DNA of 63,636 bases, the filler included, from Globobulimina sp. (Eukaryota): the NCBI GenBank assembly GCA_003354225.1. It is 49 parts of 49 records of this genome, joined end to end, with 100 filler letters (N's around TTAATTAATTAA, not from the genome) between each part and the next. Parts side by side here need not be neighbours in the genome. Positions count along the whole stretch, not along the records: positions 44,237 to 45,436 come from PIVH01021116.1; 48 more parts are not named here. One strand, written 5' to 3'. A model generated the notes under the pieces. It was not told where the DNA came from. It ran no database searches and was given only the letters and a program-made list of their open reading frames with translations. Positions 39,931-49,436 of this stretch are shown here, piece after piece; the stretch's first letter is position 1; each line of letters begins with the position of its first letter. The position numbers were made by a program, and so were the translations under genes.

Positions 39931-40769
39931 TTATTTAATGGATTATTTAATAGTGTAGGCCACGAAATGAACGACTATTTATAGAATGGTTCAAATTATG
40001 CATGAGATACATGAAAAATATTGGTTTTTGAGGAAAACAAAACAGTGAGATAGTTGCTTTGAAAATGTAGTAAGGACAATATTACGCAGTATAATAATAA
40101 GTTGAATTTTTAGTAATATTTAATAAGACACACAATGCACAAACAAAATAAAAAAAATAAACAATGCACATATAGGTAACAAACAATACAAATTGTTTGA
40201 ATTTTTAATATGATAAAAAAAATACACAAAATTTACNNNNNNNNNNNNNNNNNNNNNNNNNNNNNNNNNNNNNNNNNNNNTTAATTAATTAANNNNNNNN
40301 NNNNNNNNNNNNNNNNNNNNNNNNNNNNNNNNNNNNATTTTATTGATATCGTCAATGTGGTATCTAAATACACTTTGTCAATTCGCAAAACCATTCAGAA
40401 ACTACTTTCTGCATTCATCCACTGTTCACCATTATTTGACACCAAAATATCCTCCAAAGAGATTTTTCTTCAAAGATTTAAGAAGCTACAGAAATGTGAA
40501 GGAAATTTATGCAGAAAAATCAAAATCTATGAGAAAGAAACGTTATAAAATGTTAAAGACAGTTCCAAAGAAAATGGATGAATTAAGAAAAACACAAAAT
40601 TTAAAAATTTATAAACTGAAAACGGATACAATTAAACGAGAATATATCTCATTAGCATGGCATCATTGTTTTCATAAGCATCCAAATGATCTAAAACGTG
40701 CACTTTTTACAATGTCTATGGATGTCTCGCATTCTGTGGGTGTACGGTGTTGACAGACTGGCTCGAAAT

Positions 40770-41080
40770 CTCTGTGCAATCCATGATTGACTCACATCGA
40801 ATGGATCCGTATTGAATGGATCTGTCCATTTAAATATACCTTCTGTCTCCTCATCATTTAAACCGATCCAGCAAAGATAATTTCTATTTGAAGCTGTACC
40901 GCAAATAGGTGTAGCAATATCATTGTCTGCTTGCGATGTGATTGTTGCCAACAATGATCCATATGCTTCACAAGCAAGTTGTGCATCTTCGCCAGTTAAC
41001 GGAGTATCAATTCGAAAATAACCATTACATAATTTCACTGCTAATAAATGAAAAGCTGTAATTAATACAAAGACAGACAT
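40770..41080 (-). CDS. Secreted C-type lectin domain protein (truncated)
   Basis: Signal peptide; AQLAC...LATITS, CWIGLND...EGIFKWTD. Confidence 0.8.
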
Positions 41081-41173
41081 TGTTGTAAATACGTGGTGGT
41101 AATTAGATGGTTGAAGGTCTAAAAAAAAACCTGAGGTTTGACTTCAGTAAGATTTATTTTTTAACAGAATAAC

Positions 41174-43576: not shown

Positions 43577-44136
43577 ATGGCAACAGAAGTATCAGACAAC
43601 GATGAATGGATTTTACGTCCAGCCAAAACGAATTGGATCGCCACATTATCGAATAAAAATTACTGGGCATTTTATTTCCTCGTAATCGTAGCAATCTGTG
43701 TAGGCGGTATTGGTTACTTCGGCGAAGTGGCTCATTACGAAGTACCACCATTGTGTGATTTCGTAGGTCCTGATGGCAGTGTAATTATCTCTGCCAAGAG
43801 TATCAATCACGGCGAGGAAGTCTTCCATTTACGTGGATTAATGGCTTATGGCTCCTTTTTAGGTGACGGCTCAGAGCGTGGTCCAGATTATACCGCCGAA
43901 GCATTGCACGAATGGGCCCTTGGAATGTCCAAACATTACGAATCCAAATTAAAACACAAGACGCAGCACGACATCGAGGCCATTAAACCGCGCGTTCGCA
44001 GCGAATTACGTAACAACGCGTACAACAAAGAAAAGGATGTCATCGTCTTGAACACGGCACAGATATCGGCGTGGAAACGAGTGGCCACTTATTATCGCCG
44101 CATATTCGCCGGAGCTGAACAAGGAACGTTCACGTT
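43577..44136 (+). CDS. nor: Quinol-dependent nitric oxide reductase family (qNOR/NorZ; Nod-like N-terminus), N-terminal fragment
   Basis: TM helix + PP, GEEVFHLRGLMAYGSFLGDGSERGPDYTAEALH, ELRNNAY, YYRRIF; AT-rich upstream region with no Shine-Dalgarno. Confidence 0.9.
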
Positions 44137-44237
44137 NNNNNNNNNNNNNNNNNNNNNNNNNNNNNNNNNNNNNNNNNNNNTTAATTAATTAANNNNNNNN
44201 NNNNNNNNNNNNNNNNNNNNNNNNNNNNNNNNNNNNT

Positions 44238-45172
44238 GTCCGAATTGCTGCTGAGTTTTGGGAAGAGAATATTTTTCGGAAATCATTAGCCGCCAAATTA
44301 GTGTGTAATATATATATTATATAATATGTAATAATAATGCAAATTAACAGGAGTTTGGATGTGCGATTTATTTTACTATGCTTGCGGACAACGTAGAAAT
44401 GAGAAGTATTTTTTCAAGGAACCTGGCTAATAAACAAAGCATAGAAAATGCATCCATGAAATTTCTAGATATGATTGGTTGGTTACTACGGTGAGTACGG
44501 TCATTGTTGCGTTGCAATGTTAACTTATTAGCAATGTTACAAGAATTAGGAGTTATGCATAGAAATATGGGTATATGTTACCGTCACTTTGAAGCTATGC
44601 TACGGTCATTGTATGAAACATTTTGGTATTATTTCCCGATCAGATATGGTATACAGGTACACATACTCTATATTTTCGTAGATTACGTCCGGACTTTGGA
44701 TTATAACAAAACAGATTAAATACGTGATTGACCAAATATTTACATTGACAGCGCGTGTAATGTGCGGAAAGAGTTTAAACAGAATCGAAGAATATGTAAA
44801 AACGGACCATCTCCATAATAAACATGAATTTTTTGGATCGTTGAAAGTATGCTTAGCATCGAATGTGGGACGAGAATATTTATATAGATACTTACAACAG
44901 ACATTATGCGATGAAATTGCTATCTTCTTGAAATCTTTGGGCAAATTTAAAGTTGCTACATCAGATAAAGAGAGATTTATGATCGCGAGATGTAAATATA
45001 GGCCAGGATGGATATGTTAGAATTAGAACGCATATTTTGTGAGAAAGATGATTTAACAGTATCTAAAGATATGTTTGTTGCGGTTGAAAAAGAAATGCAT
45101 CAATTGATTAGAGCTAATCATTGGAGCAAATTCAACCAAACTTTCAAAAATATTGAAATTTCGCCAATTTAA
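44238..45172 (+). CDS. Globin-RGS fusion protein (introns 44301-44350 and 44657-44714; two lesions)
   Basis: Globin: FGCAIYFTML..EMRSIF..KFLDMIGWL..LQELGVMHRNMGICYRHFEAMLRSL; RGS: SLKVCLASNVGREYLYRYLQQTLCDEIAIFL..FK and DMFVAVEKEMHQLIRANHWSKF. Confidence 0.75.
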
Positions 45173-45538
45173 TTATTAAAAATAATTGTTGTTTGTTTAT
45201 GTGCTTATTTGTATAGCGAATCTGTTTTTTTTATGTGTTTGTTTGTGTTGTTTTTGTGTTTCCATCGATCGATCGAGCGGAGTATTTGTTTTTTTTAAGA
45301 AACTAAATAAATAATATTTTTTAGTGCATGTGCATGTGTCATTTGTGTGATTTTAATTGTGTTATTGTGTAATAATATGTGTTTTTGTTAATATATAAAT
45401 TAGATTTGTGTGTTTTTGATATAAAATACATGCACTNNNNNNNNNNNNNNNNNNNNNNNNNNNNNNNNNNNNNNNNNNNNTTAATTAATTAANNNNNNNN
45501 NNNNNNNNNNNNNNNNNNNNNNNNNNNNNNNNNNNNAC

Positions 45539-46736
45539 TCTCCCGTGCCTTTTTTAGCCGGTGTCAATCGGTCGTGGATCAAAGGACAGCATTACGACGA
45601 TGTTGTTTTTGTGTATTTGGACGACGATACCATACTAACTACGTCTTCCACGCAGTTGGAGGCCTTACCCCAACGACCAAAGAAGAAATTGGAGAGCAAG
45701 TTGGAGGAATTGCTGCCGTGGCTGAATAAAAACGACAAATCGCCCAACAAACACAAAACAAAACTGTATAAGACGTCGATGGGGATCGGCGGCGGCAATT
45801 TGGGCGCGACCTATGAGGACGAAGAGAAGTATAATATGGGCGGCATGACGCAACACATCAACCATAGCTTGGACCTGCTGCCCATTTCGCACTTTCTGAC
45901 CAGTGGCAGTACCATCCATTCCAACGAGGCGAACAAGGAACAGAACTCTGAGGGCATGACCCGGCCGCACGAGATTATATTCCGTGATATACAGAAAGCG
46001 TTTTTGAAATTCTTCACCAGCATTTTGGAACAGCACAACGTGAAATACACCGACAAACAACGCAAGAATGACCCCAGTATACGGCGGCAGGAATATATAT
46101 ATTTTAAGTTGAACAAAGTGAACAATTTGGTGGAGTTTCAGCGGGAGAAGTTTTTAGAGGAAGGCATTGATAAAAATTTCCGCCCCTTCATGGAGATATT
46201 GACCCAGACGCAGCTGTTCATGGCCTTTTGTCAGGAACGGGAGGAAATGATCGAAAGCCGCAGCAAGGACATTCCGTACGAGATTCGCTACTTTGATGAG
46301 GAGATCATTGCGAAAAAAAATAGATCGACGCTGCGGACCAAGAAGAAAGTGACCAGTTTCTTGGATGACCGGTCGATGAATTTGAAGAGTGTGTTTGTAG
46401 CGAACCAGCCCAATTTGAATGATTTGGATTTGAGAGAGTATTCCTACTCCTCCTTCCCCAACGGATTGAAGAAAGAGAGGTTTGGCATCATACGCAAAGT
46501 GACTGCGCCGTGGGACAATCGCATGAATAATGTGTCCAAATTGCGACGCACCAAATCCTTGCGTACTCGCGGCGGCTTTGGACACGTCAAAAACGAGCAG
46601 ACTTTTGGCGCATTACAGCAGTTAATGGCGATGCAGCATACGGCGCATATACACAAAGCTCAATGGTGGGACAATTTCACTGTGCAGACCTTGATCGCGC
46701 AGCCGTATAGCCGTATGATTATAGAGAGGAATGAGA
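45539..46736 (+). CDS. DENN-domain Rab GEF fragment
   Basis: SPVPFLAGV, VVFVYLD, AFLKFF, FMEILTQTQLFMAFCQER. Confidence 0.85.
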
Positions 46737-48138: not shown

Positions 48139-49336
48139 ACTGGAGGAATCAAATTAACGTCAGAAGGAACGTACCAAGATAATTTCATGGAATTTTGGAG
48201 AACTATGAGGAGATTGAAAATCCCGGATAATTGGGTTTGGGATTTCCCTATAAATGATGCGATATTGCAAATTTATATAATAAATTGCTGTTTTATTAGG
48301 AAGAAACCCAATGTATACCCTACAATAAGGAATAAAATGAGGGCTATTGATTGGGTGGCACAAATGTGTGGAGTCCAGCAATCCTGGTCTACAAACCCAT
48401 CGATTGCAGCGTTATTACAATTCGTTAAATTAAGGAATCCTGGGAAAGGAAGTGATACTTTGCCAACTACGGCTGACATTTTATTAAATATAATAGAATA
48501 TATATTAATGTTTAAAGTATACATTGGTTTGGATTTAAATAATAATGAAATAAAATTAAAATCGAATTGGTTGTCATTTGAGAAAATATGGAGAGATAAA
48601 TATAGATTATATTGGTATATGTATGCGATGTCTTTATTATTTGTAGGAATACTGGGATTGAGAGGAGCTGAGTGTTATGAAAATAGCAAAAAAGAGTATG
48701 AAGGTTATGGTATATATATAAGTGATATCCTTTTTTATTGGAAAGATCCAATATCGCATAGATTATACCCAAATAATGCATATTCGAAAGCATTTGATTA
48801 TTTAAATCACATAAGAGTAAGATTGAGGCATTCAAAAAATGCAAGGAAAGGACAGGATATTTATTTAAGAATTGGGAGCATGTATCAAAGGATTGAGCCC
48901 GTGTTAATAATTTATCATATATTTAATATACAGAGAAATGAATTAAAACAAATATTTAATCATAAATTAGAAAAGCGTTTCCTATTCCAAACGGAGGGAT
49001 GTAATTGGAAATTAACAGCGATTAAGAAACAATGGGTGAAATTGATGAAAGAAATGGGTTTCCTGGAACCAGCGAGAATGCGTTTCCATGGCTTAAGGAA
49101 GGGCTTTGCAACAACTTTATTGCAAAAAGGGGTTCCAATGAGTTTAATAGCATTTGGTGGAAGATGGAAGCTTTTGGCGGCAATATATCGATATTTAATA
49201 CATACACAAAATGATTTAATAGGTCTGACTGCCATATTTCTATATGGTGAAAAATTGAATGCATATAAAATTGATATGGACAATAATGAGTGTGATTTGG
49301 TACAACAATTACCAAATAATAAAATGAATGCATTGT
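48139..49336 (+). mobile_element. Tyrosine recombinase of DIRS/Ngaro-like (or Crypton-like) element
   Basis: LGLRGAE (R), HSKN (K), FHGLRKG (HxxR), GRW, IYRYL (Y); open across the whole contig. Confidence 0.85.
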
Positions 49337-49436
49337 NNNNNNNNNNNNNNNNNNNNNNNNNNNNNNNNNNNNNNNNNNNNTTAATTAATTAANNNNNNNN
49401 NNNNNNNNNNNNNNNNNNNNNNNNNNNNNNNNNNNN

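Follow-up and report, generated by a model that had tools for sequence, protein, structure and literature searches.

The nearest described analogue of the proteins considered here is HGbRL of Methylacidiphilum infernorum (PDB 3wfw), in which an F-type globin is fused to a Roadblock/LC7 domain (PMC4476040, accessible part). Relatives of that output domain (MglB) are GTPase-activating proteins (GAPs), and a relay of ligand state has been proposed in the same text. HGbRL is bacterial, has another output fold, and points to a small GTPase rather than to G-alpha; a GAP role is likewise only a candidate there. Globin-coupled sensors of the S family (HemAT, and proteins with diguanylate cyclase, kinase or adenylate cyclase outputs) have the same N-terminal 3/3 globin with a proximal His F8, joined to an output domain. 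The accessible part of PMC7475203 describes their outputs as chemotactic, kinase, cyclase and gene-regulatory, and a term search of it gives no occurrence of “RGS”; by the same kind of search, RGS is absent from the available portion of PMC8717448. The foraminiferan family that we describe differs from these sensors in being eukaryotic, in its Met-Gly start, in its RGS output, and in a globin that is nearest to single-domain globins of the F family (Hell's Gate globin I, flavohaemoglobin, neuroglobin).

Among eukaryotes, the 7TM-RGS receptors of plants and Naegleria follow the same logic of a sensor fused to a GAP, whereas the sensor of this family is a soluble globin (PMC9283941 and PMC3971589, each in part). 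Haem state controls G-alpha in the case of neuroglobin, whose ferric form acts as a G-alpha GDI; neuroglobin stands alone without an RGS domain, and it acts by holding back the release of GDP, not by accelerating hydrolysis (PMC4842972, in part). Acylated globin X is an N-acylated membrane globin, also stand-alone and lacking an RGS domain (PMC7475203, in part). Both domains occur in one eukaryotic protein, with the RGS domain first, in supplementary figure S6 of PMC3971589 (2014), the legible portion of which lists RGS//Globin and Bactofilin//RGS//Globin architectures. Hence, the pairing of globin and RGS in a eukaryotic protein had been listed before. No foraminiferan is among the legible species names in that figure, and “Globin” has no occurrence in the main text.

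A literature search of the accessible full texts, which include few subscription papers, returned no paper on a globin-RGS protein. In the accessible text of three papers on foraminiferan metabolism (PMC8153729, PMC13561418 and PMC6783311), a term search found no occurrence of “globin”. The expanded family of globin-first RGS fusions in foraminifera thus appears to be undescribed. An earlier sequence-only reading of the locus knew of no characterised globin-RGS protein. We found no account of the globin-first family; against the earlier reading, RGS-first proteins are listed in the PMC3971589 supplement, as far as that is legible. The globins of two RGS-first proteins, P0133 and P0151, fall outside the foraminiferan clade in a quick tree (SH-aLRT 99; all trees cited here are quick trees with SH-aLRT support), which points to separate fusions. 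P0133 and P0151, together with L101 (1-1806) and L102 (1930-3063), show a tandem RGS-globin-RGS(-globin) architecture with strong Pfam scores.

The locus itself lies in a 63,636-nt stretch (the window) that consists of 49 unrelated contigs of ~1.2 kb each with N spacers between them, so the neighbouring parts give no genomic context. Its features are as follows.

44237-45436, no strand assigned: the whole contig (G000:C21116), 1200 bp
44238-44300, plus strand: part of exon 1, coding for globin helix A and its conserved FW pair, placed by tblastn to P0155 and P0041
44301-44350, plus strand: intron 1, GT-AG, 50 nt, phase 0, in an alignment column common to 12 of 30 other modelled loci
44351-44656, plus strand: exon 2, globin helices B-G, with helix positions from alignment to Hell's Gate globin I
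44369-44371, plus strand: Tyr B10, in exon 2
44411-44413, plus strand: Phe CD1, in exon 2
44450-44452, plus strand: Ala E7, in exon 2
44489-44497, plus strand: lesion 1, a 9-bp (3-codon) insertion in helix E, of ambiguous placement, with an in-frame TGA at 44492-44494
44558-44560, plus strand: CAT, the codon of the proximal His F8, a residue that 50 of 51 relatives keep
44657-44714, plus strand: intron 2, GT-AG, 58 nt, phase 0, in a column common to 10 of 30 other modelled loci
44715-44990, plus strand: exon 3, lacking its 3' end, with globin helix H, a linker of ~20 residues, RGS helices 1-4 and the start of helix 5
44991-45001, plus strand: lesion 2, an 11-nt remnant ending in the AG of a conserved third intron; frame shifted
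45002-45172, plus strand: exon 4, RGS helices 6-9 with an NHW motif, 60% identical to P0155
45170-45172, plus strand: stop codon TAA, in exon 4
45173-45436, plus strand: 3' flank, AT-rich, GC 0.24

The sequence-only reading had proposed a globin-RGS fusion acting as a gas sensor that gates G-protein signalling. What it observed was confirmed in part, and its interpretation is partly supported. Both introns are canonical, and their positions at columns shared with other loci confirm the splicing that it gave. The globin and RGS motifs that it quoted are all present, as is the proximal His codon, and the order of the domains holds. The FW pair of exon 1 is widely kept in relatives (F in 48 of 51, W in 46 of 51), and the RGS domain starts at ~44838 within exon 3, where the CDEI motif is found. 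Exon 3 matches 18 places in its own genome and, along its whole length, shares 62% identity with a protein from Elphidium. The match of the locus to the globin-RGS family is far beyond chance. Its single pieces score under the Pfam cut-offs (Protoglobin E 0.072, RGS E 0.11). The 5' end of the gene is truncated by the contig end; judging from relatives, the part beyond it is the Met-Gly start and a disordered arm.

Removal of the introns had been said to give a reading with a globin-like helix pattern. That reading is not open: the spliced frame is closed by the TGA of lesion 1 and by a frame shift after 44990, at lesion 2. The earlier quotation of the RGS domain placed an ellipsis between “EIAIFL” and “DMFVAV”, which hides the second break. 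The insertion at lesion 1 has a counterpart in none of 51 relatives and looks like a decayed tandem duplication. Lesion 2 loses ~24 codons (RGS helix 5 to helix 6), the intron donor and most of the intron; the closest protein, P0155, has 24 residues at this position that are missing from the window copy. The break ends at the AG of 45000-45001, at the alignment position of a third intron that 7 of the 30 other modelled loci possess. A single deletion that took the end of the exon together with the donor and most of the intron accounts for lesion 2. Two small deletions flanking a shifted “VNI” are a less likely alternative to this one deletion ending at a conserved intron acceptor. The loss removes the Asn of the helix 5-6 loop, which is the RGS Asn that faces the catalytic Gln of G-alpha, and it covers residues 67-81 in the numbering of a modelled paralogue, L008, which are G-alpha contacts in that model.

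Several ways of rescuing the frame were considered and rejected. An extra intron could excise the TGA from a strong-looking donor at 44491, but all of the in-frame products lack His F8. Other GT/GC-AG rescues require an 18-nt intron or lose at least 15 codons. Alternative splicing gives no full protein, since no route supplies the missing RGS codons. Decoding of the TGA as a residue is needed by no relative, since the insertion is without counterpart among the 51.

We conclude that the locus is probably a real broken gene: a recently broken copy, either a pseudogene or a null allele. The copy proposed as a candidate sensor cannot make the protein. It is otherwise well preserved, keeping 49 of 55 conserved columns, and its end branch in the quick tree is 0.34 (median 0.43); hence, the lesions are either recent or derived from the assembly. 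The second of these, in which the cell carries an undamaged gene and the two lesions arose in assembly or amplification, is the less likely. It would account for the lack of any trace of long decay in branch length or conserved columns, and it suits an assembly fragmented into 48,370 contigs. The orthologue is intact in relatives, and an intact second copy was not found in this fragmented assembly, which makes that a weak negative. One contig with a family gene (L015, G000:C1756; minus strand, 3' part) looks chimeric: within the RGS box, the gene appears to give way to GC-rich sequence that holds an oxidoreductase frame of bacterial appearance. Errors in assembly fit less well with two separate lesions of different kinds, 500 bp apart, or with the confinement of lesions to 3 of 31 modelled loci (the window copy, L003 and L080). 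L003 is a 92% identical duplicate of the intact L084 with its own 4-nt frameshifting insertion and many substitutions, and so resembles genuine decay of a duplicate. The lesion of L080 is a frameshift within helix G of the globin. Seven of the nine sequencing-run entries listed contain part of the stretch, with a best share of 0.38, and RNA runs are absent from these seven.

Other parts of the window hold unrelated frames. The adjoining contig carries the N-terminal part of a nitric oxide reductase (43577-44137; NorB cytochrome c-like domain, E 9.6e-27). Neighbouring contigs carry a dDENN-domain frame (45539-46735, E 1.7e-6) and a C-type lectin frame (40694-41143, E 4.3e-8). A tyrosine-recombinase-like frame at 48139-49337 (Phage_integrase E 1.9e-5, below the cut-off) is perhaps of mobile-element origin.

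Rather than a singleton, the locus is one member of a family of dozens. Matches to the family lie on at least 32 contigs of the same genome; some of these matches are incomplete, and one gene may be split across two of the contigs. Of these contigs, 31 were modelled with a profile-based spliced aligner. Three loci (L018, L024 and L031) have intronless frames that pass both the globin and the RGS Pfam cut-offs, which establishes the two domains on one polypeptide. Intact intronless genes include L031, L024 and L014. A chimeric contig, or two adjacent genes, is ruled out by the intronless two-domain frames and by transcript-derived proteins. The Pfam search that had been suggested as a check thus succeeds for intact relatives, while the pieces of the window copy stay below threshold.

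A profile search of 1.84 billion representatives, of which we considered the best 150 matches, yielded 82 proteins at E ≤1e-30; a word-indexed search with the family alignment found only 3. At least 69 of 158 collected proteins span both domains, at least 47 of them near full length; among 49 database proteins scanned, 20 score above the Pfam cut-offs for both domains. Of 20 family clusters looked up, 13 carry a species label, and all 13 are rotaliid foraminifera (Elphidium margaritaceum, Ammonia sp., Bolivina argentea and Nonionella stella); the other seven are unlabelled. Bolivina and Nonionella share clusters, so that their two labels may not be independent. The intact two-domain homologues that the sequence-only reading suggested seeking are thus found, as transcript-derived proteins, in Bolivina, Nonionella, Ammonia and Elphidium. 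The fusion is kept across all four genera. Because intertidal genera are among them, the family is not special to low-oxygen denitrifiers; this weakens the earlier remark that such a protein would suit life in an O2/NO gradient.

In the quick tree, paralogues of this genome interleave with proteins of the four genera, which places the expansion of the family before Elphidium, Ammonia, Bolivina and Nonionella. The window copy falls in one group with Bolivina P0041, Elphidium P0032, P0157 and P0035 (SH-aLRT 95, quick tree). It therefore belongs to an orthologous group that is intact elsewhere. The homologues, together with AT-rich genes whose introns are short, support a foraminiferan origin of this genome.

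Intact members share a layout of Met-Gly, disordered arm, globin, linker and RGS box. The Met-Gly start is present in 34 of 46 Met-starting members, as against 7 of 44 other long proteins, and 16 of the 34 have Ser at position 6. The arm is of low confidence in the model of P0032 (residues 1-73), and the linker is 8-46 residues long, mostly 15-25.

The structure prediction proposed earlier was carried out on intact relatives and agrees with both domain assignments. For the globin, the Elphidium P0032 model superposes on Hell's Gate globin I with Z 16.1 (rmsd 2.0, 131 aligned), and a piece of L031 (pLDDT 85) does so with Z 15.7 (rmsd 2.1, 125 aligned). The A-H helical 3/3 fold is present in these models, and a search with the family profile recovers Hell's Gate globin I (E 2.7e-18). 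The best PDB sequence match of one member, P0012, is HGbRL (3wfw, E 1.3e-11). The globin does not test as one of the S-family (sensor/protoglobin) lineage: no member scanned reaches the PF11563 cut-off, and the best scores come from PF00042 and from F-type PDB globins. From its sequence, the globin is of the 3/3 F-family type. In the alignment of 51 relatives (mean identity ~20%), the Gly that precedes His F8 is invariant. Position B10 is Phe in 22 and Tyr in 21; CD1 is Phe in 21 (as in the window copy), Leu in 16 and Met in 8; E7, often hydrophobic, is Gln in 13, Leu in 10 and other residues in the rest; and E10 is Lys in 25. Members thus differ in their pockets: L031 and L024 pair Tyr B10 with Gln E7, and P0032 and P0157 have Leu at CD1.

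For the RGS box, L031 superposes on RGS8 with Z 17.0 (rmsd 2.8, 132 aligned) and P0032 on RGS4 with Z 15.9 (rmsd 2.0, 125 aligned). The family profile finds RGS2 at E 1.5e-17, and at family level both the fold and PF00615 identify the domain. It has the canonical nine-helix fold of R4-type RGS proteins, above all RGS2 (PDB 4ekc, 2af0), with which it shares the Cys of FCEE and the Asn of ENNSY. Identity to R4-type proteins is ~15-21%, and the family has lost the Asn that follows the conserved RGS Glu (present in 1 of 51). In the CDE motif, aligned to RGS2, Cys and Glu are each found in 47 of 51, and the helix 5-6 loop Asn is found in 41. The helix-8 Asp is found in none; 36 have Asn there, as does RGS2. 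The two changed contact positions make the strength of any GAP activity uncertain. The loop Asn corresponds to Asn128 of RGS4, and the switch I contacts are Glu87, Asn88 and Asp163 in RGS4 numbering. The accessible part of PMC7572916 does not name these residues.

Partners for such a domain are abundant. The G-protein toolkit of this genome is very large, with 130 G-alpha and 113 RGS matches at exon level (not gene counts). The switch I Thr-Gly is kept in all 14 aligned G-alpha rows; several G-alpha proteins of the genome have changed P-loops. We predicted a complex of one G-alpha (L063) with the RGS box of L008, GTP and Mg. It scored 0.77 (best control 0.00), which shows likeness to the solved complexes of this textbook pair rather than binding or the pairing of these paralogues, and which may reflect memory of them. 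The predictor was run without alignments, and its score mark is reached by 51 of 78 solved pairs and 2 of 108 mismatched ones. At least 85% of contacts recur between runs, partner pLDDT is at least 86, and the loop Asn contacts the catalytic Gln and switch I. The RGS box is thus modelled to bind switches I and II of G-alpha.

What might an intact member do? We lean towards a membrane-tethered, acylated haem sensor in which the ligand or redox state sets GAP activity towards G-alpha through helix H and the linker. Judging from the sequence of the start, N-myristoylation would tether the protein at the membrane beside G-alpha. The globin would take up haem through His F8. The RGS box, with its modelled fold and interface, would engage switches I and II and speed GTP hydrolysis. 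Binding of O2 or NO, or oxidation or reduction of the haem, would then shift helices E-H and move GAP activity up or down via the short linker, a step for which globin-coupled sensors provide the analogy. Such tuning of GAP activity by gas is plausible. With distal pockets that differ from one to the next, the ~30 paralogues would respond to different ligands or over different ranges. The variable linker, together with a pTM of 0.67 in both models (the L031 piece and P0032), counts against a rigid allosteric unit with a fixed interdomain contact. If this proposal is right, globin sensors would have a new class of output, and G-protein signalling would have a new input. It would also offer a directly expressible candidate, soluble and of ~300 residues, for O2 sensing in foraminifera that live across steep O2 and nitrate gradients; the window copy is unsuited to expression, but intact intronless relatives exist.

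Coupling between the domains could instead be chemical, with the haem consuming or making NO, O2 or peroxide and the product modifying conserved RGS cysteines to switch the GAP. Two such cysteines are each present in 47 of 51 relatives, the second of which (residue 31 of the modelled L008 chain) contacts switch I at the G-alpha interface, and 9 of 51 combine Tyr B10 with Gln E7, as do flavohaemoglobin-type globins. However, RGS2 has a Cys at the same place in the interface without any globin, and the protein has no reductase domain to sustain turnover. We consider this route improbable. An equally improbable alternative reverses the direction of signalling: the RGS box would serve G-alpha as an effector or scaffold, with little activity as a GAP, and active G-alpha would recruit or switch the globin. 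This agrees with the alteration of two canonical contact residues in nearly all members, and there is precedent in the accessible texts both for RGS domains that have lost GAP activity (PMC3971589) and for effectors that use canonical RGS domains (PMC9283941). Against it, the loop Asn and the conserved Glu are mostly retained, active R4-type RGS proteins are its closest matches among solved structures, both in sequence and in fold, and a catalytic output domain is absent. Less probable still is that much of the family has a haem- and gas-free globin serving as a lipid or small-molecule pocket or as a dimerisation module: CD1 is other than Phe in 30 of 51, E7 is highly variable, Pfam globin scores are low and 29 of 49 proteins fail to pass both cut-offs, but His F8 persists in all relatives except one despite the low mean identity, and the top structural matches are haem globins.

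Returning to the membrane-tethered haem sensor, a broader picture can be drawn, which we regard as tentative and as falling somewhat short of an even chance. Rotaliids would carry an expanded set of ~30 haem receptors tethered to the membrane, each with an RGS GAP activity set directly by O2 or NO, and with pockets tuned to different points along the sediment redox gradient. Heterotrimeric G proteins would thereby come under receptor-independent control by gas, and the cells would use these receptors together with globin-fused pentameric channels for finding and holding depth.

Globins occur in other architectures in the same genome. L021 (G000:C6775, 2-2422, minus strand) is an 807-codon open frame with tandem globins (Pfam E 7.5e-27), downstream of which is a domain of the pentameric ligand-gated ion channel type (PDB E 8e-12) that includes membrane helices; L019 and L022 are similar. 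From this arrangement, L021 is a candidate globin-gated channel. L020 (G000:C9501, 726-1904) has two globins in tandem and a hydrophobic stretch at its N terminus; L027, L028 and L029 are single globins related to it. Among the hits are also P0006, with 14 globin repeats, and P0068, in which seven globin repeats are combined with cytochrome b5.
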